64,000 nucleotides of DNA. Source: Verrucomicrobiota bacterium. Its GTDB lineage: Bacteria > Verrucomicrobiota > Verrucomicrobiia > Opitutales > Seribacteraceae. The notes under the pieces are model-generated. The model searched no databases. It had not been told where the DNA came from and was given only the letters and a program-made list of their open reading frames with translations. Made by a program: the position numbers and the translations under genes. This document shows positions 32,736 through 50,877 of this stretch, in pieces. Location of the stretch: contig JAQBYT010000005.1 in NCBI GenBank assembly GCA_027622665.1, positions 1-64,000 of the forward strand, read 5' to 3'. Every line of letters starts with the position of its first letter. Positions within the stretch are counted from its first letter, which is position 1.

Positions 32736-32750
32736 CGAAAAGTTTCGACT

Positions 32751-34331: not shown

Positions 34332-34389
34332 AAGCTCCTTAATCTAAGGGATTGATCGGTTGTCCATCAATTGAAAAAGGGTGGATTTC

Positions 34390-35121: not shown

Positions 35122-35193
35122 GGAGGTAGTCTAATTTCGGCAAAGAAGGGGGGAAGGCAAAAGGAAAGGAAGTTTGATTTTTGTCCTTAGATC

Positions 35194-35979
35194 CTAATTT
35201 TTTTCGTAAGTTGTCCAAGTTCCTTTTGCATAGTCCCAAAACTGCCGTGCGTTTTCTCTTTCCTTGTAGTAAAGCCATTCCGATGTGGAGTGACGGTAGA
35301 AAAATGGGTAAAGTGAGCTGCCCGTGTAAAGCCAACCAAGTTGCCCGTCCCACATCCATAGAGCCGATTCGTCGGCACCCGAAACGAATAGCCATCCGTG
35401 CTTGAGATGATAAGCCCATCCATCTCCATTGTCATAGAAATCTCCGAACCATTGTGAACTTTTAAATCCCGCGGCGAAGGTGTCCGTGGTGAGGTGGGAC
35501 CATGGGGAAGCGGCTTTAGCTTCTTCAATTTGCAGCATCAATGTGTAAGCCGAAGTCGACGGCCCTTCGCGATTTGGCCAACGGTACCCTGTGATTTGAA
35601 TTTGATATTCACCTGCCGAGGGAAGGGTTCCGGAGATGCTGGGGTTTGCGATGTCACCGTTGAAAGTTAAGCCGTCCGGCAAACCTTGGATAAGATAGCT
35701 TTGAGCTTGGTGCCGTAGAGTGTAAAATTCAAAGGAGTAGGAGTCCCCCGCCGAACCTGAAGCAGGGTTTTCGCTATTTGCTTTTACATAGGTAGTGGCT
35801 CCCGTTAGCGCGTGTGGCAGAGTTGTGGCCGCTGCTGCGGGCAAGAGAGCCCGAAGTGTTTTAACATGTGCGGCAATCGGAGCGAAAAAGGTCGAAAGGT
35901 GTTTACCGAATGGCAAGATCGGCAAGCGTTGAAGAAGCATGGCCAATGTCATGCATAGGATTTTTGCCCTACTTTTCAT
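35194..35979 (-). CDS. Exported Ig-like protein with Trp-rich C-terminal domain
   Basis: Long leader ending HALTGAT; GLPDGL..ISGT..GEY putative-Ig motif; WFG..GWAYH..HGWL tail. Confidence 0.75.
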   Translation of the reverse strand: MKSRAKILCMTLAMLLQRLPILPFGKHLSTFFAPIAAHVKTLRALLPAAAATTLPHALTGATTYVKANSENPASGSAGDSYSFEFYTLRHQAQSYLIQGLPDGLTFNGDIANPSISGTLPSAGEYQIQITGYRWPNREGPSTSAYTLMLQIEEAKAASPWSHLTTDTFAAGFKSSQWFGDFYDNGDGWAYHLKHGWLFVSGADESALWMWDGQLGWLYTGSSLYPFFYRHSTSEWLYYKERENARQFWDYAKGTWTTYEKN

Positions 35980-35981
35980 CT

Positions 35982-36233
35982 TTAGTTGCATCCGCAGCCA
36001 CCACCTCCTGCTCCGCGACCTCCTCGGGAGGCTTCCCGGCTGTAGAAGGCGTGATCATTCATCTTAACCGCCAATTTGTCTCGATCCGGTCGCATGAGGT
36101 AGTCGGCGAGGTATCCCCTTTGCAGGACGCTCACAGTGGGCTTGGGCGAGCAACCACCAAAGGTAATGGCCGTTAAGACGAATAGCAAAAGCCGCCAAGA
36201 TTTCTTAATTCCTTGTGTCGTGCAGGTATTCAT
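35982..36233 (-). CDS. DUF4266 lipoprotein
   Basis: Lipobox FGGC; terminal REASRGGRGAGGGGCGCN. Confidence 0.88.
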   Translation of the reverse strand: MNTCTTQGIKKSWRLLLFVLTAITFGGCSPKPTVSVLQRGYLADYLMRPDRDKLAVKMNDHAFYSREASRGGRGAGGGGCGCN

Positions 36234-37176
36234 AAATGCCTTTTGTCCATTCAACGCCGTTTCGGTTTTGTATGCAACCTTCCGCTCCGAAAAACCTATC
36301 GATTCTAGCAAGCCCTCGATCCGTTCCATCAAGCAAGGCGCAGGTCGACAGAACACCTGCTTCCAGACAGGAGCGTGAGATGACGGTTGCCGACAGACAG
36401 TTGTTGCTCGTTGGGAAACCTGTGCGATGATCGATCAAGTGGCCGTACCTTTTGCCGTTCTTTTCGAAAAACCTTCGATAGTTCCCCGATGTCGCGACAG
36501 CCATGCCGGAAACCGAAAAAATCCGTTTTGCTTGGCCTTGCTTTCCAGGATCTTCAAGACCGACTCGCCATGCAGTCGCGTCGGGGGGAGAACCTTCGGC
36601 AAAAACATCGCCTCCAAAGTCGATGAGAAAATCTTCCAGCCCGTGCTCGCGGGCCAACTCGGTTACTCGGTCAACGGCATATTCTTTGCCAAAGCCTCCG
36701 AAATCTAGTCCCATCCCTGTTTCGGGCAGGAAGATGGAGTGGTTCTCTCGATGAACTTTCTTCCATCCGATTTTTGAAAGCGCCTCGCTGATTGCTGATT
36801 TGGAGGGGATCTGCGGATTCTCGGCTTTAAAATCCCAAAGGCGGGAAAGGGGAAGGGTGGTGGGATCAAAGAGCCCTTCCGTCAAAAAATGGAGGGTTTC
36901 GCACAGGTCGAAAAGGTGAATGTCTACCTCGTCGATTACAACGGGGTTCCGACCGGCGGCATCATTGATCCGGCATATTAGGCTGTCGTCCCTGAATCGG
37001 GAATAACGGGCCTCAAAACGGTGCACCCAATCGAGGGCGTTTTTTCGAAAGATATCGGCAGCGACCATCGAATTCGCCGTAAAGAGTATTTTGCAATGGG
37101 TGCCCATGGCAGGAAACTGCAGACGAAAGAGACCGTCAGCCAAGACTTCAGGAGGAATTTTAGATGAAGAGTGCAT
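36205..37176 (-). CDS. apbE: FAD:protein FMN transferase
   Basis: AMGT, FDPT, DFGGFGKEYAVD, ATSGNY, HLIDHRTG. Confidence 0.95.
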   Translation of the reverse strand: MHSSSKIPPEVLADGLFRLQFPAMGTHCKILFTANSMVAADIFRKNALDWVHRFEARYSRFRDDSLICRINDAAGRNPVVIDEVDIHLFDLCETLHFLTEGLFDPTTLPLSRLWDFKAENPQIPSKSAISEALSKIGWKKVHRENHSIFLPETGMGLDFGGFGKEYAVDRVTELAREHGLEDFLIDFGGDVFAEGSPPDATAWRVGLEDPGKQGQAKRIFSVSGMAVATSGNYRRFFEKNGKRYGHLIDHRTGFPTSNNCLSATVISRSCLEAGVLSTCALLDGTDRGLARIDRFFGAEGCIQNRNGVEWTKGIYEYLHDTRN

Positions 37177-37178
37177 CC

Positions 37179-38336
37179 TCAGAACTCCCATTGCAGGCCA
37201 ACGGTATAAATATCCGCGTCCGGATACATAAGGGGTGAGGTTACTCCGTCACGGCCTTTCATGTCGTACCTCTCGTAGGCCAAGTCTAGGTTGATGTTGT
37301 CACCTTTGAACATCGTCAGCTTCAGGCCGTAGGCGAGACTCTCCATTTTGGAAATCCGATAGTCTGCCGAATAATGGGGCCCCAACCCCGTGGGAGGAGC
37401 TCCGGAATTTATTTGGGATTCGTCCAAGATCGTGACGTAATAATCAGCCGCTGACTGATTATAGTATCTCAGCAAGGGTCGGACGACAAGATTTTCGCCA
37501 AAGCGCTGGAACCACTGTACTTCGAAGGTGTTGCCTCGAATACCGGAATCGTCGGCAAAGAATCGGTAACTGCCTTGGAGGCTAGAACGCAAGGACTCAA
37601 TGTAGCGAGTTCCCTCGACAAAGACGACGTATGCATTGCGGGCATCTGGGCGGTTTTCAGGTGTTTGCCGAAGAATTTTGGTGCCATGCACCGTTGCGTG
37701 GTAGGCAACGTTTTTGTACGGATCGCTCAAATAACCTGACGGGCGAGAATACGAAAGGTTCACCGCCAACGTAGTCTTGGGGTCGAGGACACGATGGGCA
37801 CCCAAGATGACCTCGGGGGTTCGCTTGGTTTGCTCGTCGAATCCCGGGTATCCTATCATTTGCGTATCCACGGTGTCGTCGAGGTAGGAAATCCCGGCGC
37901 TTAGAGTGAGAGTTTCTTCCGCATATTGACGAGCCAGTCGAACGGCATAACTACGCGAAAGGTAATCGGGTTCATGACTGAGTCCGAACTCGAATGATAA
38001 GTCGTATTCATCGGTTTCTTTCGAAAGGGTGACCACTCCGGCCCGTCTTGTCTCTTCGATCGGGTGGGAAAGCCAGTCGGATTCAGTGGGCGGCAAGCCT
38101 ATGGGAGTGGCCCCCGACCACGTATCCACAATGCCCACGACATCAAGGCTCCATTCTTCCGTGAGGGCTGTTTCCGCTTCGGCGTACCATGAGCGAACGT
38201 GAATCCTATCCCCTTCCTCGACCCATTCGCGATACTTGGCTCGCAATGCCTTTTCGGCGGTGCTCTTCCGGGTGACCAGTACGAGCAACGCGGCGACCGC
38301 CAAGAAGCGAATAGCTCTAATTGCGCTCGTCTTCAT
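37179..38336 (-). CDS. DUF3570 outer-membrane beta-barrel protein
   Basis: Signal peptide, DTWSGAT, EPDYLS, GYLSDPY, ENRPD, SADYR, terminal Phe; adjacent to apbE and DUF4266. Confidence 0.88.
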   Translation of the reverse strand: MKTSAIRAIRFLAVAALLVLVTRKSTAEKALRAKYREWVEEGDRIHVRSWYAEAETALTEEWSLDVVGIVDTWSGATPIGLPPTESDWLSHPIEETRRAGVVTLSKETDEYDLSFEFGLSHEPDYLSRSYAVRLARQYAEETLTLSAGISYLDDTVDTQMIGYPGFDEQTKRTPEVILGAHRVLDPKTTLAVNLSYSRPSGYLSDPYKNVAYHATVHGTKILRQTPENRPDARNAYVVFVEGTRYIESLRSSLQGSYRFFADDSGIRGNTFEVQWFQRFGENLVVRPLLRYYNQSAADYYVTILDESQINSGAPPTGLGPHYSADYRISKMESLAYGLKLTMFKGDNINLDLAYERYDMKGRDGVTSPLMYPDADIYTVGLQWEF

Positions 38337-38490
38337 TCGGGGAGAGCCTTGCGAAAGGGTGAGGTTCGGTCAAGCTCTGCAAGTCCGTATTGCTATCGGA
38401 TTGTCTGGACTTGTTTCTTTCCCTCAGTTGTCCTGCAATCCTATCTTGCCGAAATTCGGCTTACTCGCGAGGAATCGTTTACTTGATTAT

Positions 38491-39189
38491 ATGAATTGGA
38501 AAAAACGCATATTCGTTGTCGACGATGAGGAAGATCTTACCGACCTTCTGCAATTCCAATTGAAGCGCGAGGGATTCAAAGTGGAGACCGCGAACGATCC
38601 ATTCGTGGCTCTAAGCGTGGCCCGCGACTATGGGCCGGATTTAATCGTGCTGGACGTCATGATGCCCGACTTGGATGGCTACCAACTGCTGCGCATGTTC
38701 CGATCCGACCACCAGTTGACCGATGTTCCCGTGGTCATGCTCACGGCTCGAGCGGGGGTGGAAGACCGGATCAAGGGGCTTGAGAGCGGTGCCGACGATT
38801 ACATGTGCAAGCCATTCGAAACAAAGGAACTGATTCTGCGCATCCGTTCCATTTTGAAACGGAGCAGTGAACAAAACCGAGCTCATTCAGGGCGAATTGC
38901 CATAGGCAACGTCGCCATCGACGAGGAAGACCATTCCGTGAGCATTGGCGGTGTGGAGATTCCCTTTACTGTGACCGAGTTCAAGCTGCTTCAGTTTTTC
39001 CTTAAGCGTAAGGGTAGGGTGCAAACCCGCGAGAACCTCCTTTTGAGCGTTTGGAAGTTCGATGCCGAAGTCGAGACTCGCACCGTAGACGTTCATATTC
39101 GCCGACTGCGGAAAAAGATGGAGACGGCCGACTTAGAGATCGAGACGGTGCGTGGGGTTGGATATCGTTTGGCGGTAAAAGCAAAGTAG
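38491..39189 (+). CDS. phoB: OmpR/PhoB-family response regulator
   Basis: VVDDE, LDVMMP, KPF, RTVDVHIRRLR..IETVRGVGY; phosphate-uptake context. Confidence 0.8.
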   Translation: MNWKKRIFVVDDEEDLTDLLQFQLKREGFKVETANDPFVALSVARDYGPDLIVLDVMMPDLDGYQLLRMFRSDHQLTDVPVVMLTARAGVEDRIKGLESGADDYMCKPFETKELILRIRSILKRSSEQNRAHSGRIAIGNVAIDEEDHSVSIGGVEIPFTVTEFKLLQFFLKRKGRVQTRENLLLSVWKFDAEVETRTVDVHIRRLRKKMETADLEIETVRGVGYRLAVKAK

Positions 39190-39195
39190 ATTGCC

Positions 39196-40038
39196 GTGTA
39201 TGTGGAACCATGGATCTTGTCGGCTGTCCTTCTCGGTTTTGTTTTGGTCTGTTCGGTACTTTGGCGCCGTCGGAGATCCATGGACGGAAAACCTGAAGAG
39301 CAAATTTTAGTTGATATTGGAAACGAGGAACTGAATCCTCACGATAATACCCGCAGGGATTTTGTGGCTAACGTATCGCATGAGTTGCGTACTCCGCTAG
39401 CCATTGTGAAAGGATTCGCGGAAACTCTGGACGACAGCTACGAGGAACTGTCAGGCAAGAAACGGCGAGAATTCATAGGAAAGATTCGAAAAAATTCGGA
39501 TCGTCTTTGCTCCTTGGTCGAGGATCTCCTCCATTTGGCGGAATTGGAGTCTCCTTCGCATGAACTGAGACTCGAACCCGGCAGTCTTTCAGTTGTTGTC
39601 CGTACCGTGGCAGACAGGTTGGGCGAGCGACTAGATCTGAATACCCAAAGAATACGACTGGAGCTTGCCGAGGAACGGAAGCCGATCTCCTTCGATCCCT
39701 TGAAGGTAGAGTGTGTCATCGAGAACCTTTTGAGCAATGCCCTTCGCTATGCCCGCGATTCCTCCGTTATAACTATTCGAACTATTTTTGATGAAGATCC
39801 AAAAGTGATCCGTTGTGAAGTTCAAGACGATGGCTGCGGCATTCCAGAGAAGGACGTTCCCCATCTTTTCGAGCGATTCTATCGTGTCGACAAGGGACGT
39901 TCCCGGGAGAGCGGTGGCACGGGCTTGGGTTTAAGCATCGTGAAGCATATCGTGGAATTGCATGGCGGCGCGGTATCCGTTCGGAGTGAGCTCGGTGAAG
40001 GAACGATCTTCTCCTTTAGCCTGCCCTGCGGTTCCTGA
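39196..40038 (+). CDS. phoR: PhoR-like histidine kinase, compact
   Basis: RRDFVANVSHELRTP, FERFYRVDKGRSRESGGTGLGL. Confidence 0.8.
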   Translation: MYVEPWILSAVLLGFVLVCSVLWRRRRSMDGKPEEQILVDIGNEELNPHDNTRRDFVANVSHELRTPLAIVKGFAETLDDSYEELSGKKRREFIGKIRKNSDRLCSLVEDLLHLAELESPSHELRLEPGSLSVVVRTVADRLGERLDLNTQRIRLELAEERKPISFDPLKVECVIENLLSNALRYARDSSVITIRTIFDEDPKVIRCEVQDDGCGIPEKDVPHLFERFYRVDKGRSRESGGTGLGLSIVKHIVELHGGAVSVRSELGEGTIFSFSLPCGS

Positions 40039-40179
40039 ATTTACTACGCCTCTTCCCTCAATTGGGAAATTGGGAGTGAATCATCTCCTGCATTTGTAAC
40101 GTTTTCTTCGCAAGATCGTAATTTTAATCTGCTATTATAAATGGAAACTTTAAACCATTCACAATCCGATAACAGTAAA

Positions 40180-41298
40180 ATGAACGGAAAAACCATAGCC
40201 ATTCTGCTATCGATCACTTGTTTTGCATCCGCGAGTGGACAGGACGCCAAGAAGTCCGGCTACGACAAAATCTGGAGCAAAGTGGTATGGTATGAGAATG
40301 AAGAGAACGACGTTCTTCAGAAGATTGCATTCACGGGTCGTCTGCAGGGAGACTATCATAGCTTCGATGATGACGCTGGAGGAACATCCGAAAGCGACTA
40401 CGATTGGCGACGTTTTCGAGTTGGCTTCAAAGCCTCTTTTTTTAATAGGCTGACCCTCCATTCGGAGGCCGACATGAACCTCAATGATCCTTCGCCTCTC
40501 TACAAGAAACTTACGGATACCAATCTTTCATGGACCACGGAAGGCGGGGTGAAGATCAAGATGGGAAAGCAATCGGCACCTTTTACTTTGCATGGTTCGA
40601 CGTCATCCAAAAAGCTTTACACTCTCGAAAGAGGTAAGGTTGCAAGTAATATCTGGTTTTCCAACGAATACTATTCCGGGCTTACCGTCTCAGGCAAAAA
40701 AGGTAGCTGGGAGTATTTCACCGGAATCTATTCGAGCGATCTTGGACCGGAGTTCGACGAGGCTTTTGACTACGGTTGCTTTGGTCTTTTTTCCTTGGGA
40801 TACAACTTCAAGGAAAATTTAGAATTGGATAACGCCTTGGTTCGCTTGGATTACGTCAAGCAACAGGAAAATACGGCGAATCCCTCAAAACAGCCTGATC
40901 ACAAGAATATAACTTCATTGGTAACCAAGTTCGAGAAGGATAATTTGCACCTTTGGGCAGACCTAAGCTTTTCCGATGGATATGGCTCCCAAACCGATCT
41001 ATTTGGTCTGCAGTTCATGCCCTTCTACGATATTACCGACAAGACCCAAGCGGTTTTTAGCTACACTTACTTAAAAAGCTCCGGCGGAGACGGTATCAAG
41101 CTAACCAAATACGAGAAGGATTTGTTTAGTGGCAAGGGCAACGAAACCAGTGAAAGCTTTCTCGGACTGAATCACTTCTTCTATGGGCATAAGTTGAAGT
41201 GGCAAAATGGAATCCAATACACTGAAATGGAGACCACCTCGGTTGGCGACAAGTACGATGGCTGGGGGTTTACCTCCGGAATCCGTATCAGTTGGTGA
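40180..41298 (+). CDS. Phosphate-selective porin O/P family protein
   Basis: Signal peptide, GRLQGD, WRRFRVG, TSSKKLYTLER, terminal aromatic residue. Confidence 0.8.
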   Translation: MNGKTIAILLSITCFASASGQDAKKSGYDKIWSKVVWYENEENDVLQKIAFTGRLQGDYHSFDDDAGGTSESDYDWRRFRVGFKASFFNRLTLHSEADMNLNDPSPLYKKLTDTNLSWTTEGGVKIKMGKQSAPFTLHGSTSSKKLYTLERGKVASNIWFSNEYYSGLTVSGKKGSWEYFTGIYSSDLGPEFDEAFDYGCFGLFSLGYNFKENLELDNALVRLDYVKQQENTANPSKQPDHKNITSLVTKFEKDNLHLWADLSFSDGYGSQTDLFGLQFMPFYDITDKTQAVFSYTYLKSSGGDGIKLTKYEKDLFSGKGNETSESFLGLNHFFYGHKLKWQNGIQYTEMETTSVGDKYDGWGFTSGIRISW

Positions 41299-41341
41299 AT
41301 GAAGTATCATTTTACCGAAACATCTAAACCTGGTCTGAAAA

Positions 41342-43174
41342 ATGGAACATATTGACTTTTGGGATTTCTTTGTGGGCTTCCTCTACGTATTGGGGGGGCT
41401 GGGCATCTTCCTATTCGGCATGAGGGTGATGAGCGAAGGCATTCAAAAAGTAGCGGGAGAGGGCATGCGCAGGATTATGGCGACGATGACCCAGAATCGT
41501 TTCTTCGGGCTCATGACGGGATTGACGGTCACCTGCCTCGTGCAATCTTCATCGGCAACGACCGTGATGGTGGTGAGCTTCGTAAATGCTCAGTTGCTCA
41601 CTTTGACCGAGTCAATAGGGGTTATAATGGGAGCGAACCTTGGCACTACGTTGACGGGTTGGATCATTGCGACCGTGGGCAAATTCAGTCTGTCCAAGAT
41701 CGCCCTGCCCATAATTGGAGTGGGCCTTCCCATGATTTTCGCGAGCAAGCCGAGGATAAAAAACTTGGGCGAGGTGCTAGTTGGTTTCGGTTTGCTTTTC
41801 TTTGGCCTTAGCGAACTGAAGGATGCTGTTCCCGACGTTAAAACCTTGCTCAGGAGTACTGAACAGGCAGACAAGTTCCTCGTTCAGGACATACAGGCCT
41901 TGATCGAGCAATTGAACAGTTTCGGGTTCGGATCCGTTCTGATCTTTCTCGGGATAGGCGTAGTCTTGACGCTTCTTGTTCAATCTTCGTCTGCCGCAAT
42001 GGGCATCACGATCATCGTGGCCATTAACGGTTGGATCAATTTCGAGATCGCTGCCGCTATTGTTCTTGGAGAAAACATAGGCACCACCGTTACTGCATGG
42101 CTGGCCTCTTTGGGAGCCAACTTGAACGCTAAGCGCGCGGCTCGTGTCCACTTTCTTTTCAATGTGGCGGGAGTTTGCTGGATGTTGCTCTTGTTTTACC
42201 CGTTTATCGCCATGGTGGACGGGGTCATGCCGGGTTCCATTCACCAAAAAGACGTTACGGCTCAAGAGATAGCGGTTTTTCGCAAAGTGCAATCCTTGGA
42301 AGCTGAGGGCATGGGCGACGAAAACATTAAGAAGGCGATTGTGGATTTGAACATCCCGCTCCACTTATCTTTGTTTCATACCCTCTTTAATCTCTGCAAT
42401 ATCGGTCTCCTGATTGGGTTCTCTCCGCATTTGGGGAGGTTGGCCGTGAAATTGGTGAATCCTCGAACATCTAATGGGAAGGAAGCTGTCCCTGGAAGTC
42501 TCGCCTCGATTCACTATGAGGGTTCGGGTCTGCTGCCCAAGACTGGCGAGCTAAATCTTGCCTTGGTCGAGGCGGAGGTCAATCGGCTTGCCGCCGTAAC
42601 TCGTTACATGTTCGAAGGGTTCGTCGACATATTCGAACACCCCGATGATGACAAGGGTCCGTTTATCAAGGAGCTTATCGAATTGGAGGATAAGTGCGAC
42701 GGACTCGCTTTCGAGATTACCCAAACGCTCATTTACTGCACGACCGAGAGTCTTGCCGGGGAAAGCGCATTGCACGTTACTTCCCTGCTGAGGGTGACTG
42801 CTGAACTGGAGGACATCGGTGACTGTTGCCACCGCTTGGTCCAATTGGCCCACCGGAAATACCGTAAGCAGCGTATTCTGCCCGAGGAAACCAAGAAGGA
42901 AATAAAGATTTTCTCGGAACAGATTCTTGACTTCATGGAGCTTTACCAGACCCACTTGAAGGACAATAGCATTCTTCCGGATATGGCCGAGGCTGAGCAA
43001 ATCGAGCAGCGCATCGACGCTTCCAGGAAGATGCTTCGCAAGGGTGCCGTTAAGCGAATGAAGGAATCGGAGAACGTGAAGGCGGAAATGATCTACGTGG
43101 ACATCCTCAACGAGATGGAGAGAATCGGCAACGACGCCCTAAACATCGTTCAAGCCCTCAACCACGTGGTCTGA
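41342..43174 (+). CDS. Na+/Pi cotransporter family protein with PhoU-like C-terminus
   Basis: Two QSSS motifs, GANLGTT/GENIGTT, ELEDIGD and EMERIGN. Confidence 0.93.
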   Translation: MEHIDFWDFFVGFLYVLGGLGIFLFGMRVMSEGIQKVAGEGMRRIMATMTQNRFFGLMTGLTVTCLVQSSSATTVMVVSFVNAQLLTLTESIGVIMGANLGTTLTGWIIATVGKFSLSKIALPIIGVGLPMIFASKPRIKNLGEVLVGFGLLFFGLSELKDAVPDVKTLLRSTEQADKFLVQDIQALIEQLNSFGFGSVLIFLGIGVVLTLLVQSSSAAMGITIIVAINGWINFEIAAAIVLGENIGTTVTAWLASLGANLNAKRAARVHFLFNVAGVCWMLLLFYPFIAMVDGVMPGSIHQKDVTAQEIAVFRKVQSLEAEGMGDENIKKAIVDLNIPLHLSLFHTLFNLCNIGLLIGFSPHLGRLAVKLVNPRTSNGKEAVPGSLASIHYEGSGLLPKTGELNLALVEAEVNRLAAVTRYMFEGFVDIFEHPDDDKGPFIKELIELEDKCDGLAFEITQTLIYCTTESLAGESALHVTSLLRVTAELEDIGDCCHRLVQLAHRKYRKQRILPEETKKEIKIFSEQILDFMELYQTHLKDNSILPDMAEAEQIEQRIDASRKMLRKGAVKRMKESENVKAEMIYVDILNEMERIGNDALNIVQALNHVV

Positions 43175-43204
43175 CTCTGCCGCCGGTTTCCGTTTGGCAA
43201 AGCC

Positions 43205-43627
43205 TTATACGGTCGATTGCACCCACTGCTCGACTCTGTATCTGATGAGATCGCGGATTTCGCGGGTCCGCTCCAATTTTTCTTCCTCCGCGACTTGCAA
43301 GGTAGAGGGATCAGGGAATCCCCAATGCAATCGCTTGACTGCCTCCGGGAAGGTCGGGCATCTTTCCGCGGATGTCTCGTCGCAGACGGTTATTACATAG
43401 GTGAACTCTTGGGCCCGGCGAATAAAATGCTCGACGGAGTCGCAAGTGTTCTTCGAAATATCCAAACCCACTTCTTGCATGGCTTCGACGACGATGGGGT
43501 TCAGTTTGCCTGGCTCGATGCCTGCGCTTTCGGCTTCGAATCTTCCCTTGCCGAATTGATTGAGGAAAGCTTCCGCCATTTGTGAACGAGCACTGTTGTG
43601 AATGCATACGAATAAAACCTTTTGCAT
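43205..43627 (-). CDS. arsC: Arsenate reductase, LMW-PTP/thioredoxin type
   Basis: VLFVCIHNSARSQMAE, TVCD..RCPTFP, HWGFPDP. Confidence 0.9.
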   Translation of the reverse strand: MQKVLFVCIHNSARSQMAEAFLNQFGKGRFEAESAGIEPGKLNPIVVEAMQEVGLDISKNTCDSVEHFIRRAQEFTYVITVCDETSAERCPTFPEAVKRLHWGFPDPSTLQVAEEEKLERTREIRDLIRYRVEQWVQSTV

Positions 43628-43785
43628 CCTCATATACCAAAGCCTACTTATCTGAATGGTCAAGCCATGGAGATTGAGTATTGTGGTGGTAGTCTGTAAC
43701 TAATCCGTCTTTTTGAGGATCATATAAGCGATAAATCAAAAGTTTTGTTTCATCCGGCTTGCCACGATGAGCCTATATCGTTGCG

Positions 43786-44484
43786 ATGTTAGATGAAATT
43801 ATGCCCTTTCTGGAAGTCAGTCACTTACGCAAGAGCTTTGTTTCGCCTGATGGCGGGAAGTCTCTCGTTGTGGACGTAGAAAGTTTTTCCCTGACTGCCG
43901 GAGATCTCTTCGGCATGCGGGGCGAGAGTGGTTCGGGCAAGACGACGTTCCTTCATCTTTTGGCGGGTATACTTCGACCGGACGAGGGATCCGTCATTAT
44001 AGACGGGACCGAAGTGTCCGAATTGAACGAGGCCGCCCGCGATCACCTCCGGGCTTCTGCAATCGGTTACGTCTTCCAGTCTTTCAACCTTCTTCAGGGT
44101 TTTACCTGTCTCGAAAACATCATGCTCGCCATGTCCTTTGCCGGGAAGGTGGACGAGACTCGAGCCAAAGAGTTGCTCGATAGGGTAGGCCTTTCTCACC
44201 GTTTGGCTCATTATCCCCGTCAGCTTTCCATTGGGCAGCAGCAACGCGTGGCCCTCGCTCGGGCCTTGGCTAATCGTCCCAAGTTGGTATTGGCCGACGA
44301 GCCAACGGGCAACCTCGATCCCGGCAATGCTCGCAAGGCCCTCGCTCTCCTCCGAGAACTTTGCTCCGATGCCGGGTCGGCTCTCCTCCTCGTTAGTCAC
44401 GATGAGAACGTGATTGGCGGTTTTGAAGAAAATCTTGATTGGAGTGACCTCAACCGAGCCTTCGCCGAGGCGATGAACGATTGA
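43786..44484 (+). CDS. ABC transporter ATP-binding protein (LolD/MacB-like)
   Basis: [25 protein letters not shown]. Confidence 0.92.
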   Translation: MLDEIMPFLEVSHLRKSFVSPDGGKSLVVDVESFSLTAGDLFGMRGESGSGKTTFLHLLAGILRPDEGSVIIDGTEVSELNEAARDHLRASAIGYVFQSFNLLQGFTCLENIMLAMSFAGKVDETRAKELLDRVGLSHRLAHYPRQLSIGQQQRVALARALANRPKLVLADEPTGNLDPGNARKALALLRELCSDAGSALLLVSHDENVIGGFEENLDWSDLNRAFAEAMND

Positions 44485-44488
44485 ACCG

Positions 44489-45709
44489 ATGTTGCGCTCC
44501 GGTCCATGGGTAATCCTCTTCCTTGCGATCCGCGGGTTGCGGCAATATGCCTTTTCCACGGCAGTGGCATCTCTTGCGATTGCCTTGGCGGGTGGCCTGT
44601 TTCTTGGAACTTGGAAAATCAAGGAGGAAGCTAAAAACGCTTTTTCTCGTTCTTCGGGTGGCTACGATGCCGTCCTCGGGCCAAGAGGTTCCAAGCTGCA
44701 ACTCGTACTCAACGGCCTTTTTCATCTCGAGGCCTCGCCTGGTAATCTTTCATGGGAACAGTATGAAATCATTCGTGATACTCGAGGCGTAAGCGAAGCC
44801 TACCCAATCGCCGTGGGTGACAACTATCTAGGCTTTCGTCTTGTCGGAACGCTTGCCGAGATGTTTGAAAAGCACGAATGGCGAAAAGATCGGAAATACG
44901 TTGTAGAATCAGGCGGTCGGCTTTTTACCGACAATGCGAAAGAAGCTCTTGTCGGAGCCTTTGTCGCTCGTAAGCTTGGATTGAAGGTGGGCGACAACTT
45001 TCATCCCTATCACGGTCTCACCTTCAAGGAAGAGGCGAAGCACAAGGATCTCTATGTCGTTGTCGGCATACTCGAGGCTACCGGTACCCCTGGCGACAAG
45101 GTTATATGGATTCCGATCAAGGGTATCCAGCTTATGGATGGGCATAACCCAAAGACCGCTACCGATGTCAGTGCCGTTCTTCTTAACCTCAAGGGTGCTG
45201 CCGGCTTCATGCTGGATATGAAGTACAACAAGCAAGGCAATGTAGCCACACTCGCTTGGCCTGTTGCGGGCACCCTTGCTAGTTTCTTCGAGCGACTCGT
45301 TTGGTTTCAGCGTGTGCTTGAGATTATAGCCTATCTTGTCGCCTTTGTGGCGGCCTGCGTCATTCTAGCTATTTTGCGAAACGCCATGAACGAGCGTCGG
45401 CGAGAGATCGCCATTTTGCGTAGTCTCGGCGCTCGGCGCTCTACGGTCACGGCGGTCGTTCTCGCCCAGGCCGGACTGATTACTCTGCTTGGGGTAGTGG
45501 GCGCCGCCTTCGCCTATTTGGGTATCGGCTTTCTCGCGGCTTCCGTGATACGCGAGCAAACGGGCGTGCTTCTCGAGCCTTTCACCTATGACCCGAGCTT
45601 CTTTTACGTTCCAATAGGTATGCTTGCCGTTGGGTTGTTAAGCGGTTTGTTGCCTTCTCTCCAAGCTTACCGGTCCGATGTAGCCAAGAACCTCGTCCAG
45701 CAGTCTTGA
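44489..45709 (+). CDS. ABC transporter permease (FtsX/MacB-like)
   Basis: GSKLQLVLNGLFH, PIAVGDNY, ERRREIAILRSLGA. Confidence 0.9.
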   Translation: MLRSGPWVILFLAIRGLRQYAFSTAVASLAIALAGGLFLGTWKIKEEAKNAFSRSSGGYDAVLGPRGSKLQLVLNGLFHLEASPGNLSWEQYEIIRDTRGVSEAYPIAVGDNYLGFRLVGTLAEMFEKHEWRKDRKYVVESGGRLFTDNAKEALVGAFVARKLGLKVGDNFHPYHGLTFKEEAKHKDLYVVVGILEATGTPGDKVIWIPIKGIQLMDGHNPKTATDVSAVLLNLKGAAGFMLDMKYNKQGNVATLAWPVAGTLASFFERLVWFQRVLEIIAYLVAFVAACVILAILRNAMNERRREIAILRSLGARRSTVTAVVLAQAGLITLLGVVGAAFAYLGIGFLAASVIREQTGVLLEPFTYDPSFFYVPIGMLAVGLLSGLLPSLQAYRSDVAKNLVQQS

Positions 45710-45841
45710 ATAAGTGAAGTCAGTGAAAGTCCTTTAAGGCTATATTGTTCTAAGTGGTAGATGCTTTGCACCGCCCGATGCTTGCAATAAAGCCTCAAGT
45801 TCGATTAACTCTTCTACTTTGTGCATCACTTTGATTTTTCC

Positions 45842-46426
45842 GTGAAGACTTATTTTAAAGCATTCTATTGGAGATTGTTTTCGATCTCCGGACTTGCCTT
45901 TTTCTTGGGTGCTTGCGGCGCCGAGGACGGATTTGTGGATGAAGGGAAGAATGCCTCTCCATCGTCCCAACAGGATTACCTTCCCGAAATTGCCCGACCA
46001 TCCTTCCCCAAAGTCAATTTCGGAGTCCTTACGGGTTTTCGGTATAATGTGAATTGGGACACCGATGGCAGGAGTCCCGACCAAGCCGCCTTTGCGCGCC
46101 GCGTACCTTCTGCTGCCCGCAGCCTGCATGGTCGTCGGGTCTCTGTGGAAGGCTATATGATTCCCGTGACCCTTGTCGAAAATGATTCCAAGACTACCGA
46201 GTTTCTTTTGCTCCCCGACACCAAGGCATGTTGCGAAGGAAAGACCCCAAAGCAAAACGGTTGGATCCTCGTGAGTACTCCGCCCTTTGGCGAAAAGCCA
46301 CAAATAGACAAACTTTTGCGCGTCACCGGCGAATTCACAGTCAAGGAAAGGTGGAGCCCTGCAGACGGTTTCTTCAAGGGTCTGTATCATATGACTTGCG
46401 AAACGCTCGCTCCCGTTGCCTTATAA
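45842..46426 (+). CDS. DUF3299-like lipoprotein
   Basis: Lipobox LGAC; VEGYMIP, EFLLLP..CC; start uncertain (45821 or 45842). Confidence 0.75.
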   Translation: MKTYFKAFYWRLFSISGLAFFLGACGAEDGFVDEGKNASPSSQQDYLPEIARPSFPKVNFGVLTGFRYNVNWDTDGRSPDQAAFARRVPSAARSLHGRRVSVEGYMIPVTLVENDSKTTEFLLLPDTKACCEGKTPKQNGWILVSTPPFGEKPQIDKLLRVTGEFTVKERWSPADGFFKGLYHMTCETLAPVAL

Positions 46427-46449
46427 CTGGAGTAACCGGAATTTTGAAA

Positions 46450-47280
46450 ATGAAGCCCTCAATAACCCTTACCGTTTTTATAACCTGTGGGTTCTTCCTC
46501 ATCAGTGGTTGTGGCGATGACGCTGGCGAAAATCATGCATCAGGCCCGCCACCAAAAGGGGATCCTATTGTCGGCGAACCGATTCAGGACGCTAAGGGAA
46601 ATTCAACTATTGCGGAAACCGAGGGTTTGCTTGGCCCAAAAGATAATCCCTCAAACACGAAGCCTTCACTTCCTGTTGAAGGTGAAGAGGTATCGGTCGT
46701 GGAAGGTGAAATTGCGAGTGTCGGAACGCCCGACGACCCTTTCGTTGCCCCCAAGGAAAAGGAAATCGTAGAACTGCCTTTCCCTCCTGGTTCGGACGCT
46801 AACGCTTCTACTGTCAATATTCCGGAACCAGTGGTTTCCCTCCTGCCCCCCTTGCCTAAGGGAAGCGGTTACGCTCCTCTAAGTTTTGCCAGTATGTCGA
46901 AGTTTGCCTACGAGGTCGACTGGGAACAGGACGGCATTAAATTTGACATCTCGGCCTTTGCTCGTCGCGTACCCGTTACGGTCCGTCAAATGGATGGGCT
47001 AGATGCAGCCGTTGAGGGCTTTATGATCCCCACAGTAGTCAACGAAGACAATAAGGTCACCGAGTTCTTGCTACTCCCCGACCAAATGAGTTGCTGTTTT
47101 GGCAAAGCTCCCGAGGCCAACGGTTGGGTTGTCGTGACGGCACCCAAGGGAGTTGAAATCATGATGGACAGGATTATTCGAGTGACCGGCACCATGGCCG
47201 TGGAGGAAAAGTGGGACGAAGAGTTCTTTGTAGGTCTCTACCATTTGACCTGCGACAAGATTACGGGCCCGGCGCTCTAA
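46450..47280 (+). CDS. DUF3299-like lipoprotein with Pro-rich linker
   Basis: Lipobox ISGC; VEGFMIP, EFLLLPDQMSCCFG. Confidence 0.8.
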   Translation: MKPSITLTVFITCGFFLISGCGDDAGENHASGPPPKGDPIVGEPIQDAKGNSTIAETEGLLGPKDNPSNTKPSLPVEGEEVSVVEGEIASVGTPDDPFVAPKEKEIVELPFPPGSDANASTVNIPEPVVSLLPPLPKGSGYAPLSFASMSKFAYEVDWEQDGIKFDISAFARRVPVTVRQMDGLDAAVEGFMIPTVVNEDNKVTEFLLLPDQMSCCFGKAPEANGWVVVTAPKGVEIMMDRIIRVTGTMAVEEKWDEEFFVGLYHLTCDKITGPAL

Positions 47281-47289
47281 CTCTTGCCA

Positions 47290-47568
47290 TCATCCGCCTG
47301 ACATCGGGGTGATCAAAATTACCTCCGATTCGTCTTCTAGCGAAACATCGGCCCTAAGGTCGACTTGGGTGCCATTTACGGCTACGACCAAGGTCGGTAC
47401 TGGATTCCCGTCTTCATTCACAACGAATTTCGAAAATTCGGGACCATGCTGCTCGGAAAGATTTCTAAGTAAATCCACAAGCCCTACTCCATCGGCGAGC
47501 TCGATGCCTTCCTCGGAGGTTCCTGCAGCAGCAGCAAGCTGCGAAGTATAGCGAAGTGCGATTTTCAT
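47290..47568 (-). CDS. MoaD/ThiS-family ubiquitin-like sulfur carrier
   Basis: 92 aa, VAVNG, C-terminal PMSGG. Confidence 0.9.
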   Translation of the reverse strand: MKIALRYTSQLAAAAGTSEEGIELADGVGLVDLLRNLSEQHGPEFSKFVVNEDGNPVPTLVVAVNGTQVDLRADVSLEDESEVILITPMSGG

Positions 47569-48245
47569 GATACGCTTTCGGCGATACTTCCTTTCTCCAT
47601 CCGAATGGAACGGGATGCCCGTCCCGCCGCGCGTTTGTCGTGCGTGACCATGAGCACCGTGCCTCCTTCCTTAGCGAAGCCGGCAAGGTGATCAAGGATC
47701 GAATCGGCATTCTCGGGATCGAGATTGCCGGTCGGTTCGTCGGCCAACAAAAGTTGGGGTTCGAGAAGCAACGCTCGGGCGAGCGCTACTCGCTGCTGTT
47801 CGCCTACGCTTAAGCTGGATGGCACATGGTGTCGGCGATCGGTTAGGCCAAACTTTTCAAGTAAAGCCTTCGCCTTGTCTTCTGCTCCGGGAAGGGCTCG
47901 AGCTAGGGTGGGGGCGAGCACGTTGTCCAATGCGTCAAGGTAGGGGACGAGATGAAATTGTTGAAAGACAAAGCCGATGTGTTTCGCCCGGATGCTTGCT
48001 CTCCTTGCGGCGTCTATTTCGTAGGGCCGAGTTCCCATGATTTCCACTTCCCCTTGATCGGGTCTCAACAATCCTCCCGCGATCAAAAGAATGGTCGATT
48101 TTCCGCAACCACTGGGCCCGCCCAGAGCTACGAATTCGCCCGACGCGATCTCTAGACTCATGTCGTTCACTGCCGCTACGGACGTGCCTTTTGGCCCCGC
48201 AAACGTCTTGTGAACATTTGTCGCTCTCAGAGTAAAGTCACTCAT
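47565..48245 (-). CDS. ABC transporter ATP-binding protein (LolD/MacB-like)
   Basis: [25 protein letters not shown]. Confidence 0.92.
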
Positions 48246-49551
48246 TGCGAAGGATGGTCGCTGGATCTCTGTTAGCGGCTTGCAGCGCGGGCAACCATGA
48301 TGCCGCGCAAGAGAGGACGGGTACGGATAAAAGGACTAGAGGAATATCTCCCCGAAGAGACCTTAGGTCGAATTCATGAAGTGTAGCTTTGAGGGTTTCG
48401 CTTAGGAGAAAAGCGAAAAGCAGTGTCAAGCCGGCCCCAAACAATCCAACGAGAAACGCTCGCCCCATCAACGCGCCCAAGATGGAACCCGTGGAAATTC
48501 CCATGGCTCGGAGGATGCCGATTTCAGCTTGACGATCTCGAGAGTTGGCAAAGGAGAGAAAGGAAACCCAAGCCATAGCACCAAGAATGACGACAGTGAG
48601 AAGAGCCGTGTACTTTTCCTTGTCCTCGAATCTTAGCTGGGTGCGGTCAGCTTGAAGTTTGATCGCTTCGGCCTTTTTAGAAGCAATGGAACTTTGACTA
48701 TGTTTCTTCGCCTTGTTTCGAGCTTCCGCTCGGGCTAGGGCTTTGCTTTCGGTTTCGATGACTTTCGTCCCAGGTAGTATACCAGCTATTTCACGACGAA
48801 TCTCCCCGAGGCGGTCAATTGTTGCGCAATTGCATTCCAGCGCCTTGATGGCATTGATGCGTCCCTCCTCCCCAAGCAGTTCCTGACATTCGCCGAGGTG
48901 CATCCAGACGGTGATGTCGTCCTTTGTGCCTCGTTCCGGATGACACTTGTCGACGATGAATTCGCGACCCATGAATACGGTGGCGTTCCCTTCCTTCAGA
49001 TCGAGCGATCGGTGGAGTTCGTGACCGAGTACGATCCGCCCTTTCCGCACGGGGTCAATGAGTGGTTTCTTTGGATCACGGTGCGCGATTGGCACTTCGC
49101 CGCGAATACCGATTAGGATGACGGTGCGTTCCCGCTCGGGCCACTTCAACTTGCGGGTAAGACTCGGCAGGAGATGGTTGACGGTTACGATGTTGCTTTC
49201 AGCCAAGGTGGCTGCATAGGACTCGGGCATTGTCTTTGAAGCGAACCCTTCTGCGTAAACTTCGCTAAGCTCTTGTCCTTCGGGAAAGATGAAGATGTTG
49301 AAACCGAGTCCCTTCATCGTTTTGCGGACATCGTCCTCGTAGGCTTTCATCTCTTTCGTGAACTTTGCTTCCATGGCGGAGGTTTCTTCGTTCATCCTCG
49401 TTAGCATTTTCGAAGTTCGCAAGTCGTGCGCGCCAAGTAACGCGACCACTGCTACAAGTCCGGCTACACTCGTTGCTATCGTTGCCACGGCGAGTCCGAA
49501 GCTTAGCTTGCGGTGCAAAATTTCCCGGCCGATAAGTCGCCTGAGGTTCAC
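48238..49551 (-). CDS. ABC transporter permease (FtsX/MacB-like) with extracytoplasmic CxC
   Basis: N-terminal TM, large soluble domain with LECNC, EIGILRAMG, three C-terminal TMs. Confidence 0.85.
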   Translation of the reverse strand: MNLRRLIGREILHRKLSFGLAVATIATSVAGLVAVVALLGAHDLRTSKMLTRMNEETSAMEAKFTKEMKAYEDDVRKTMKGLGFNIFIFPEGQELSEVYAEGFASKTMPESYAATLAESNIVTVNHLLPSLTRKLKWPERERTVILIGIRGEVPIAHRDPKKPLIDPVRKGRIVLGHELHRSLDLKEGNATVFMGREFIVDKCHPERGTKDDITVWMHLGECQELLGEEGRINAIKALECNCATIDRLGEIRREIAGILPGTKVIETESKALARAEARNKAKKHSQSSIASKKAEAIKLQADRTQLRFEDKEKYTALLTVVILGAMAWVSFLSFANSRDRQAEIGILRAMGISTGSILGALMGRAFLVGLFGAGLTLLFAFLLSETLKATLHEFDLRSLRGDIPLVLLSVPVLSCAASWLPALQAANRDPATILRNE

Positions 49552-50756
49552 TGCTCGCGATTTTTGTTCAGTACAAAAGTGCCAATCAGCAAGATGCCCG
49601 AGACCAACACAACGGCAACGACGAGGCCGTTCGAAATGGGAGGTTCATCCGTTGCCGTCTCATGTTCGACTACCTCCGAAGAAGATGCGTTCGCCTCGGG
49701 TTCAGCACTGTTTGCTCCGGCATCATCTTTTGCGGGTTCGTTGGCCGCAATGAGATCTTCGACTCCCGTCAGCGGGGGCAGCTCCTTCTCGGCGATTACG
49801 GAGCTTCCTTCAAGGGCAGTCCACCAATCGGCTTTTACCAGTATGTCCATTCCCGGGTTTTGATTCTTAACTTGGCAAGAGCATGCGCCGCAAAGATAAC
49901 CGCAGTCGGCCAGTGCGTTTTCCTCGCTTATCCCGGCGCTGATAAGTGGGGGCAAGACACGACCTTTGCCAAATACCGGGAACAGCATCGGTTTGTCCTC
50001 CATTTCCTTGTCGAGAAGGTCGTCTTCCAAGTGCAGAAGCATTGCCCGCAATATGACTTCTTGAGGATCCTTGCGAGAGAGGCGCAAGATTGAAAAGGCG
50101 ATCTTGAGGGGAACGGAGGATTCCAGAATGTTTTCTTCGTCTCCGGGGCCGAGAAGAAGGTTTGGATCGTCAAGAGCACTTTGCTGAATAACGCCTTCAG
50201 GAACAGAAATCTCTTTTTCTGCAATCTTGGCGTATTTTTCCAGTGTTTTGAAAAGTGCTTCGTCTTCTTTCTGGTTCCCGCTTTCGAGGAAAAGCCAGAC
50301 TGCTGAATCGCCGGAAAGAATTCGTTTTACCAGTTCTCGCCGGATCGGAGAGTCCAGAATTTGGTTGATGTGATTTCTTGTGAAGTTCCCGTTCCAGATG
50401 GGATCAGCGTCCTGTTCGAAGGCTTCGAATGGGAAAAAAAGGTGAATAGAGACCGAAGCGTTTTGGTCACTGTGAAGTTTTTTCCATCGTGCAAATTGCT
50501 TTTCCTCCTTCGCCAGATCGAGAGCTTCGAAACGAAGGTTTATCATCGGGCCGTTCTGTCCGACTAAGTTTTCTTCCAAATAAGTGACGTTTGCTTGCTC
50601 CTCGCTAGTTAGGTTGCCGTCATGAACAATAACCAATTGGTAGTGATCGGGTTGCCATCGTTCCAAGGCGTAACGAAATACGGGCACCTGACAAGCTTCC
50701 GTGATCACAGCAGCAACTAGGAGAATTAAGCAAACTGTGGTTTTGCGAGCATTCAT
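49548..50756 (-). CDS. Exported Cys-rich hypothetical protein with C-terminal membrane anchor
   Basis: Signal peptide ending TEA-CQVPVFRYALERW; CGYLCGACSC; acidic linker + TM. Confidence 0.8.
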   Translation of the reverse strand: MNARKTTVCLILLVAAVITEACQVPVFRYALERWQPDHYQLVIVHDGNLTSEEQANVTYLEENLVGQNGPMINLRFEALDLAKEEKQFARWKKLHSDQNASVSIHLFFPFEAFEQDADPIWNGNFTRNHINQILDSPIRRELVKRILSGDSAVWLFLESGNQKEDEALFKTLEKYAKIAEKEISVPEGVIQQSALDDPNLLLGPGDEENILESSVPLKIAFSILRLSRKDPQEVILRAMLLHLEDDLLDKEMEDKPMLFPVFGKGRVLPPLISAGISEENALADCGYLCGACSCQVKNQNPGMDILVKADWWTALEGSSVIAEKELPPLTGVEDLIAANEPAKDDAGANSAEPEANASSSEVVEHETATDEPPISNGLVVAVVLVSGILLIGTFVLNKNREQ

Positions 50757-50877
50757 GAATTGGATGTCCACTAAAGTGTCTCGTTCGGGATTTAGGAGGT
50801 CAAGCAGATCTTCCCCAAGACGAGTTTTTCCTTACCGAGGACTCCGAATGCACAATTTCCGAAATCCCGATGGATGA

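Follow-up and report, generated by a model that had tools for sequence, protein, structure and literature searches.

The DNA analysed here is a stretch of 64,000 nucleotides (the window) from a Verrucomicrobiota bacterium whose genome we designate G000, and the system under study starts from four minus-strand genes at one end of an interrupted cluster: a membrane-anchored protein with a mature N-terminal cysteine (the Cys protein), the permease and the ATPase of an ATP-binding cassette (ABC) system, and a small ubiquitin-fold sulfur carrier. These four genes are one half of a cluster, common to Verrucomicrobia and Planctomycetes, which likely makes a pterin-free molybdenum- or tungsten-sulfur group and likely installs it in secreted cysteine-bearing propeller proteins; if true, a third cellular use of these metals would be added to the two known ones. 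Re-reading of the open reading frames (ORFs) confirmed the claim of the original prediction that all four genes overlap, through GTGA (49548–49551), the 8 bp ATGAGTGA (48238–48245) and ATGA (47565–47568), and the motifs it had pointed out (TEA/CQVP, CGYLCGACSC, a C-terminal hydrophobic anchor and CNC in the permease) were all found. An alternative in-frame GTG at 50771 lengthens the Cys protein by 5 residues, and a scan for promoters and terminators gave nothing above chance (1 versus 2.2 and 7 versus 5.4). The same gene order recurs in distant loci of Verrucomicrobiota and Planctomycetota, and is therefore not due to chance; the nearest named relatives of the window locus are uncultured Opitutales.

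The full cluster comprises the Cys protein, a type VII ABC permease, the ATPase, a carrier ending in Gly-Gly (GG), a HesA-like E1 enzyme, a tandem ModA, ModB and ModC. Using core-gene profiles we mapped 130 loci, many of which stop at contig ends. In loci L007 and L010 the E1, the ModA-like protein, ModB and ModC come immediately after the carrier, and these five genes are contiguous with the Cys-protein block in L007, L010, L096, L097, L110, L129 and L138, other orders of the full set being found in L044, L045, L164, L178, L180, L181 and L182. Planctomycetota loci have the carrier after ModC or elsewhere, still beside the E1: the order differs between the phyla and the gene set holds. An intermediate arrangement is seen in L009, where the convergent DUF3299 operon plus a single additional ORF separates the halves, and the PhoBR–porin–Na/Pi block that follows ModC in L010 lies reversed between the two halves of the window (Table 1).

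The original prediction had the carrier standing away from cofactor-biosynthesis partners, and this view does not hold: the carrier, detected in 36 of the mapped loci, adjoins the E1 in 20 of them, and in the window itself the E1 and ModABC genes lie at 31267–35121. The 16 loci without an adjoining E1 comprise the window together with its close kin (12 loci), 3 loci that stop no more than 134 bases from the end of a contig, and a single locus whose operon carries the E1 at its opposite end. The carrier adjoins the ATPase in 25 of the 36 loci, a coupling which reflects one long operon that was later split. As for the expectation that homologous operons would hold the carrier, it is borne out only in part, since many genomes with the Cys protein are without the carrier: no ThiS-family gene was found in 4 of 23 such genomes, and a cluster-type E1 was found in 8 of 18.

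Table 1. Genes of the cluster and of the intervening region in the window
Feature	Coordinates	Strand	Remarks
ModC-like ABC ATPase	31267..31908	minus	
ModB-like permease	31905..32735	minus	best model TIGR01581, 192 bits (cut-off 210)
Membrane-anchored tandem ModA-like binding protein	32751..34331	minus	
E1-like enzyme (ThiF family), HesA sister group	34390..35121	minus	directly 3' of carrier in relatives
Other genes between the halves, ~12 kb, not part of the system	35122..47289	–	DUF3299 ABC operon, ArsC-like, Na/Pi transporter, porin, PhoBR, DUF3570, ApbE
MoaD/SAMP-like ubiquitin-fold carrier	47290..47568	minus	92 aa, C-terminus MSGG
LolD/MacB-type ABC ATPase	47565..48245	minus	226 aa
FtsX/MacB/LolC-type (type VII) ABC permease	48238..49551	minus	437 aa, 4 transmembrane helices
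Cys protein	49548..50756	minus	402 aa from ATG

The carrier, the HesA-like E1 and the importer

The carrier passes the Pfam ThiS model (38.5 bits, cut-off 22.5), matches MoaD and SAMP1 in the PDB and has a C-terminal GG that is invariant in 21 aligned sequences, and it remains below the MoaD models (33 versus 66 bits for TIGR01682, 44 versus 49.5 for TIGR01687). It is the third ThiS-family paralogue of G000, which also encodes a housekeeping MoaD on contig C55, beside MoaE and MoaC, and a separate 67-residue ThiS on C40 together with a MoeZ-type E1; the neighbours of the latter are presumably ThiG and ThiH, which would make that operon of the thiamine type. The possibility that the carrier is itself the housekeeping MoaD or ThiS was rejected on account of these separate genes. 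As in the MoaD–MoeB–MoaE and ThiS–ThiF–ThiG relays, a GG-ending ubiquitin-fold carrier stands beside an E1-fold enzyme; unlike them, the cluster has no MoaE or ThiG and is linked to periplasmic proteins, both pathways having their own genes in the genome, and its E1 is devoid of Asp130 and of the catalytic-loop cysteine. A single one of the 36 carriers (L172:4623-4931) does not end in GG, carrying a short extension after IAGG as in carriers needing trimming. Putative ThiS-ThiF-like fusion genes adjoin the carrier/E1 pair in G089 (L207:9219-12804) and lie near propeller and Mod genes in G299 (L227:2-379).

Two E1 genes are present in G000, one of MoeZ type and one of cluster type. When the latter was compared with 204 plasmid records, the top three matches were cyanobacterial (44–45% identity), one of them within a nifEN-nifX-nifW cluster and another beside modA, modB, genes for molybdenum-binding proteins and modD, and the next listed were MoeB-type with at most 35% identity. 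In a midpoint-rooted tree of 35 rows, with some long outgroup branches, the 21 cluster E1s and two HesA rows (both cyanobacterial) joined at 97/94, apart from MoeB, ThiF and MoeZ, and every MoeB/ThiF model scores the cluster E1 below its cut-off. Relative to Klebsiella MoeB, both groups share D65G, N71D and K87R, the loss of D63 and D131 and the deletion of the C188 loop, R15W and G39R being confined to the cluster E1. Residues D131 and K87 of the Klebsiella enzyme correspond to Asp130 and Lys86 of E. coli, and PMC12355090 counts Gly41, Arg73, Lys86 and Asp130 as conserved adenylation residues.

This affinity is informative in view of what the literature reports on HesA: it provides molybdenum and sulfur for nitrogenase, being needed for this enzyme and its iron-molybdenum cofactor (FeMo-co), high molybdate or cystine rescues its loss, MoeB is no substitute, and it is dispensable for nitrate reductase and the molybdenum cofactor (Moco) (PMC6361004). 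Its chemistry and its partner are described as still unknown (PMC3798268, PMC6361004), NifB or NifN being merely suggested as partners (PMC3798268). The cluster E1 is comparable to HesA of the cyanobacterial, Frankia and Paenibacillus nif clusters (PMC6361004, PMC3798268) in its sister position (97/94), its 44% identity, the shared departures from MoeB and the linkage to molybdate uptake. It differs in having a GG-ending carrier next door, whereas the nif cluster examined lists none, and in occurring mostly in genomes without a nitrogenase match. A HesA sister enzyme with a dedicated carrier therefore offers a handle on the open chemistry and partner of HesA. In G080 (twice), G035 and G284 a canonical MoeZ or MoeB gene lies inside the cluster, which suggests a division of labour, the carrier being charged by one E1 and then used by the HesA-like enzyme. 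Two further observations concern HesA and molybdenum. In G080 the nitrogenase genes are on C8, with no E1 match there, and the two cluster copies (L044, L045) each hold a HesA-like E1 and a MoeZ; in this genome the cluster E1 may serve nitrogenase. On a Nostoc plasmid (L183:1-7028) a HesA gene stands among modA, modB, two genes for molybdenum-binding proteins and modD, outside any nif cluster, an independent link of HesA to molybdenum handling.

The importer resembles ModABC and WtpABC systems in that all three of its parts are Mod-type. Structure searches with the tandem ModA returned ModA proteins in 13 of 14 PDB entries, and the ModB reaches 192, 146 and 125 bits on molybdate/tungstate porter models and at most 116 on CysT/CysW, ModB models being below cut-off. 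Here, in contrast to those importers, the binding protein is a membrane-anchored tandem, and its domain 2 carries GCG and xCD motifs at the anion site where domain 1 and canonical ModA have GSG/SSG and A/S-A-D-type motifs, the cysteines being present in 24 of 25 and 24 of 25 sequences. Versions free of these cysteines occur in G140, G250, G253 and G293, in which the cluster E1 was also not found. In G080 a canonical ModA-ModB fusion and a ModC flank the cluster (L045).

A further difference from known importers is that this one is kept in genomes without matches to known molybdenum or tungsten enzymes. Of 23 genomes with the Cys protein, 11 gave no MoaC match. In G089 (95% complete, 7 contigs) and G299 (94%, 420 contigs) the carrier, E1 and ModA are present, with no match to MoaC, MoeA, MoaE, nitrogenase or molybdopterin oxidoreductases; in G313 the same three genes occur with no MoeA, MoaE, nitrogenase or molybdopterin-oxidoreductase match; G269 has the importer and none of MoaC, MoeA, MoaE, nitrogenase and molybdopterin oxidoreductase matched; and G140 likewise keeps it, searches for MoaC, nitrogenase and the oxidoreductase being negative there. 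All five are incomplete assemblies. When 10 Verrucomicrobiota genomes with the Cys protein were checked for nitrogenase, 9 gave no match, and 4 others were negative as well (G089, G223, G299 and G313 are among the negatives). G000 itself has Moco genes and a match to the molybdopterin oxidoreductase family, and no nitrogenase match was found in it. Since G000 has its own MoaD and ThiS, and since G089 and G299 keep the cluster without Moco matches, the cluster probably does not serve Moco. Biological use of molybdenum is described as always proceeding through molybdopterin or the nitrogenase cofactor (PMC6361004, in its introduction), and where both are missing, a cluster that retains its Mod-type importer, HesA-like E1 and sulfur carrier would point to another use of molybdenum, or to a new cargo for these components.

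The Cys protein, its transporter and the candidate clients

The Cys protein has a predicted Sec signal peptide, a mature N-terminal cysteine (CxVPVFRYALERW), a CxC motif (C292/C294) and a C-terminal membrane anchor, its only cysteines being at positions 9, 22, 285, 289, 292 and 294 (numbered from the ATG). Among 87 non-redundant homologues C22 (85), C292 (86) and C294 (86) are near-invariant, and C285 (43) and C289 (51) are variable. The cysteine conservation on which the earlier proposal hinged is thus upheld for these three residues and for the CxC of the permease, and not for C285 and C289, so that CGYLCGACSC was rejected as a whole four-Cys site. The cleavage site is A-x-A-like, of the signal-peptidase-I type, with Ala at −1 in 81 of 84 homologues; a lipobox precedes the first cysteine in 3 of the 84 non-redundant sequences, and in 5 of 113 homologues taken from the database, and the lipoprotein reading was rejected on this evidence. 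No family for this protein was found in Pfam, NCBIfam or the ESM Atlas.

The predicted structure (mean predicted local distance difference test score, pLDDT, 86) consists of a signal helix, two thioredoxin-like domains (37–136 and 136–292), a linker and a C-terminal membrane helix, the fold matches being of modest score (best Z 8.8, root-mean-square deviation 2.6 over 100 aligned residues) and the top Foldseek matches being a-b and b-b' pairs of the protein disulfide isomerase (PDI) type (E 4e-4). The predicted thioredoxin fold is shared with thioredoxin, Dsb and PDI proteins, but not the conserved CxxC that follows the first strand in those proteins: no cysteine follows strands 39–45 or 152–157, and the sole CxxC spacing (C289/C292) is at the end of the last helix. 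A prediction of the complex between residues 22–335 and the C-terminal propeller of a G000 client scored 0.02 (mark 0.32) and was counted neither way. In the 485-residue P0094 the outer domains of the Cys protein and the three final transmembrane helices of the permease form a single protein, which may be a natural fusion, a deletion or an assembly artefact. A stand-alone homologue without any cysteine is encoded in G295 (L048:8337-9533), where searches for the cluster E1, propeller and ModA were all empty.

The permease has the 4-helix FtsX topology, with long stalk helices and a large extracytoplasmic domain. Its CxC (C240/C242, reading CNC at 240–242), between the first (16–47) and second (314–338) transmembrane helices, is placed outside the membrane by the topology, its two cysteines being conserved in 46 and 44 of 47 sequences. 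The Walker A, signature, Walker B and H-loop motifs of the ATPase are all intact. The topology, the extracytoplasmic domain and the LolD-like ATPase are those of type VII ABC systems (MacB, LolCDE, FtsEX, YtrF), from which the present one is set apart by the conserved CxC, by a partner with two thioredoxin-like domains and by the lack of MacA or TolC nearby. Both parts score far below the cut-offs of all these families, among them those of LolCDE (permease 36.8 versus 362 bits, ATPase 190 versus 308 bits). Neither MacA nor TolC families were found among the 85 non-core flanking ORFs of 150–900 residues in 15 loci, a search confined to these flanks, and MacAB–TolC efflux was rejected on this ground. 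The description of the system as exporter-type is accordingly doubtful, the more so as a permease orthologue was not found in 3 of 5 genomes tested. Loci L039 and L041 have two tandem permease genes after the Cys protein, which suggests a heterodimer as in LolC/LolE.

Large propeller proteins resembling pyrroloquinoline quinone (PQQ) enzymes neighbour 31 of 94 loci. A motif of four cysteines, C-x28-45-[RK]xxC-x17-22-CxC, closes a propeller; with one G000 copy as reference, its homologues in the database keep this motif in 119 of 120 cases. Of 101 full-length propellers, 95 have a hydrophobic N-terminus and none has a twin-arginine (Tat) motif, so that any cofactor must be added outside. The domain model (pLDDT 92) is of the quinoprotein type, the best Foldseek match being tetrathionate hydrolase (TM-score 0.62, 16–17% identity). 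The fold is thus shared with PQQ dehydrogenases and BamB at 11–17% identity (tetrathionate hydrolase included), whereas the best scores of three relatives on the BamB and PQQ-dehydrogenase models, 95 versus 285 and 69 versus 480 bits, lie below the cut-offs. The four propellers of G000 are on C4, C10, C31 and C44. ModABC-type genes also stand beside propeller genes away from the Cys protein (L210, L223, L227, L228).

Across 301 Verrucomicrobiota genomes the Cys protein occurs in 18. The cluster E1 is present in 8, all among the 18 (this count keeps matches of at least 51% identity and leaves out 17 of the 25 listed genomes, with at most 41% identity and E 1e-50 or weaker). The propeller motif is found in 13, again all among the 18, with 15 candidates scored per genome, and G035 holds a related propeller by another search. 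The second ModA domain is found in 14, of which 13 are among the 18, the exception being G001. The Cys protein is present in 32 of 201 Planctomycetota genomes, of which 25, mostly the strongest, were searched again with the first 20 listed of the 169 negatives (n=45): the E1 occurs in 21 of the 25 versus 0 of the 20, and the propeller motif in 25 of 25 versus 3 of 20, with up to 37 propeller copies in one genome. The core of the system is therefore the Cys protein with the propellers, and the permease, the importer and the carrier/E1 pair are frequent modules.

A proposed maturation machine and its alternatives

Considered as a whole, the cluster is probably a machine that loads a cofactor into the propellers. 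That it is a maturation machine which loads a pterin-free molybdenum- or tungsten-sulfur species into secreted four-Cys beta-propellers is a proposal that we hold with slightly less than even confidence. The gene set, its split in G000, its joint occurrence with the propellers and conserved cysteines in four of its proteins are observed, whereas the metal, the chemistry and the exit route are inferred. In this scheme a ModABC-type importer would take in molybdate or tungstate, and the carrier would receive sulfur, probably through the ordinary MoeZ-type E1 of the genome, since the cluster E1 is without the Asp130 of MoeB. The HesA-like E1 would bind the charged carrier and transfer the sulfur onto the metal, two steps that would be dispensable when sulfide or metal is plentiful, like HesA at high molybdate or cystine. 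The product would then cross to the periplasm, in the weakest step of the model, and be held there by the membrane-anchored Cys protein through its free N-terminal cysteine and its CxC, while the permease CxC and ATP, where a permease is present, would act as a loading or release motor. Finally, the product would be set on the four conserved cysteines of Sec-exported propellers, of which G000 has its four on other contigs. The thiol relay outside the cytoplasm which the original prediction envisaged thus survives in part: a hand-over of metal or sulfur is still the best reading and the key cysteines are conserved, while the role given to the carrier and the four-gene scope are not retained.

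A parallel in logic is NosDFY–NosL, in which an ABC system and a membrane-anchored metal chaperone mature a periplasmic enzyme by assembling the CuZ [Cu-S] centre of nitrous oxide reductase, the chaperone being dispensable at plentiful metal (PMC7558416). No sequence or fold match to any part of that system was found. In that system NosL is a lipoprotein, and NosZ, whose ligands are His, leaves the cytoplasm by the Tat pathway (PMC7558416), whereas here the Cys protein is without a lipobox and the clients are without Tat signals and have four cysteines; moreover, one machine here would serve many paralogues. On this analysis the cluster would work like NosDFY–NosL with a HesA-type step added, and yet it falls outside each known family tested.

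A number of observations weigh against the assignment of a molybdenum- or tungsten-sulfur cargo. Where Moco genes are missing, a non-molybdate anion would be an equally direct reading for the importer; the window ModA reaches 51 bits on TIGR01256, under the cut-off of 62.5 which the L164 protein passes with 109; and the tandem ModA is the only strong ModA-like protein in G000, where it may simply serve Moco. In G001, rated 100% complete, a tandem ModA and a ModC (L221:7020-10176), which may be a remnant, occur without the Cys protein, cluster E1 or propellers. The HesA grouping depends on its two cyanobacterial rows, and the cluster E1s, which keep the Gly and Arg in 21 of 21 cases, have Lys86 replaced by Arg and Asp130 by Pro in all 21, so that ordinary adenylation is not assured. 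No cluster E1 was found in 10 of the 18 Cys-protein genomes, which places the sulfur step outside the core, and three Planctomycetota genomes have the propeller motif without the Cys protein. Four cysteines in a secreted protein can also be two disulfides. Type VII ABC systems are generally considered to work from the periplasmic side; moreover, the search for a permease orthologue was negative in G481 and gave, in G305 and G425, no more than distant permeases devoid of the CxC, so that the permease cannot be the sole exit. Lastly, the genomes are incomplete and kin are not independent, and the profile counts are given without a P value.

Some of these points would fit a different cargo, the importer taking in a sulfur oxyanion (thiosulfate or sulfate) or another anion such as vanadate or selenite, with a persulfide, polysulfide or other metal site being installed in propellers that act in sulfur chemistry. 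Retention of the importer in G089, G140, G269, G299 and G313 without Moco or nitrogenase matches agrees with this, as do the cysteines at the two anion-site motifs of ModA domain 2, the tetrathionate hydrolase match and the frequent sulfatase neighbours (18 loci). We nevertheless consider it unlikely: the solved structures matched by the binding protein are ModA in 13 of 14 cases, ModB scores higher on the molybdate/tungstate porter models than on CysT/CysW, the E1 resembles HesA, which acts on molybdenum supply, a canonical ModA-ModB fusion with ModC stands beside the cluster in G080, and the tetrathionate hydrolase match is at the level of the fold only, near BamB and PQQ dehydrogenases. At the other extreme, a spare MoaD/MoeB pair and the molybdate importer of Moco could have come by chance to lie beside an unrelated ABC operon, and G000, with its Moco genes, its oxidoreductase match and no other strong ModA, would accommodate this; such a coincidence is extremely improbable given a linkage conserved in two phyla and in several gene orders, an E1 that is not MoeB-like, and a carrier and E1 that persist in genomes without MoaC, MoaE and MoeA matches.

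Thiol-redox folding, by which the Cys protein and the permease CxC would form, isomerise or keep reduced the propeller cysteines while the Mod, carrier and E1 genes ride along, draws on the two predicted thioredoxin folds with their PDI-like best matches, and on a co-occurrence of Cys protein and propellers (13 of 18) that is tighter than that with carrier and E1 (8 of 18). It appears distinctly improbable, as a CxxC is missing from the active-site position of both thioredoxin folds, the sole CxxC spacing depending on C289 (kept in only 51 of 87), and as the proposal leaves unexplained both the ModABC genes beside propeller genes and the restriction of the HesA-like E1 to genomes with the Cys protein (8 of 8, and 0 of 20 Planctomycetota lacking the latter). 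The self-contained relay of four genes, with sulfur or metal going from the carrier to the Cys protein by way of the exporter, has in its favour the translational coupling, the 25 loci of 36 with carrier and ATPase adjoining, the conserved CxC motifs in permease and Cys protein and the one fusion of Cys protein and FtsX-type permease (P0094). However, close kin of the window account for many of those 25 loci and the Planctomycetota carrier stays with the E1; the carrier is cytoplasmic and the permease CxC outside, and each of the two is found without the other, which makes such a relay very unlikely.

Returning to the loading of a metal-sulfur species into the propellers, its furthest extension, which we regard as rather unlikely, would be a third class of molybdenum or tungsten enzyme in bacteria of the Planctomycetes–Verrucomicrobia–Chlamydiae (PVC) group: secreted propellers with a thio-metal centre on four cysteines, without molybdopterin or FeMo-co. 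The HesA-like E1 and its dedicated ubiquitin-like carrier would make this centre, and the Cys protein would insert it on the periplasmic side. If this were true, HesA would represent, in nitrogen fixers, the same sulfur-on-molybdenum chemistry taken over for nitrogenase, and the propellers, up to 37 per genome, would at present be mislabelled as BamB or PQQ-like. More generally, the cluster predicts that the secreted propellers of Planctomycetes and Verrucomicrobia, a large family with mistaken annotations, are cofactor-dependent enzymes. No description of the cluster was found in searches of the open-access literature. A 2009 survey of the E1 superfamily may cover such gene neighbourhoods. 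PMC1779556, searched by term, does not mention HesA, molybdate, Rhodopirellula or planctomycetes.

Neighbouring genes

The genes between the two halves of the window include, at 43786–47280, a convergent operon of an ABC ATPase, a MacB-type permease and two DUF3299 genes. A functional link of this operon to the cluster was rejected, the operon being limited to close kin of the window; an extra permease-like gene lies between the DUF3299 genes in L002, L003, L005, L006 and L009 and is absent in the window and in L001. At the other end, 35197–38336 holds a DUF3570 gene, an ApbE flavin transferase and a gene for a 265-residue protein of unknown function, directly upstream of the E1–ModABC half and on the same strand. 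Among the mapped loci, DUF1501 genes neighbour 21 of 94 and sulfatases 18 of 94, both being abundant in these phyla and the sample being rich in kin.

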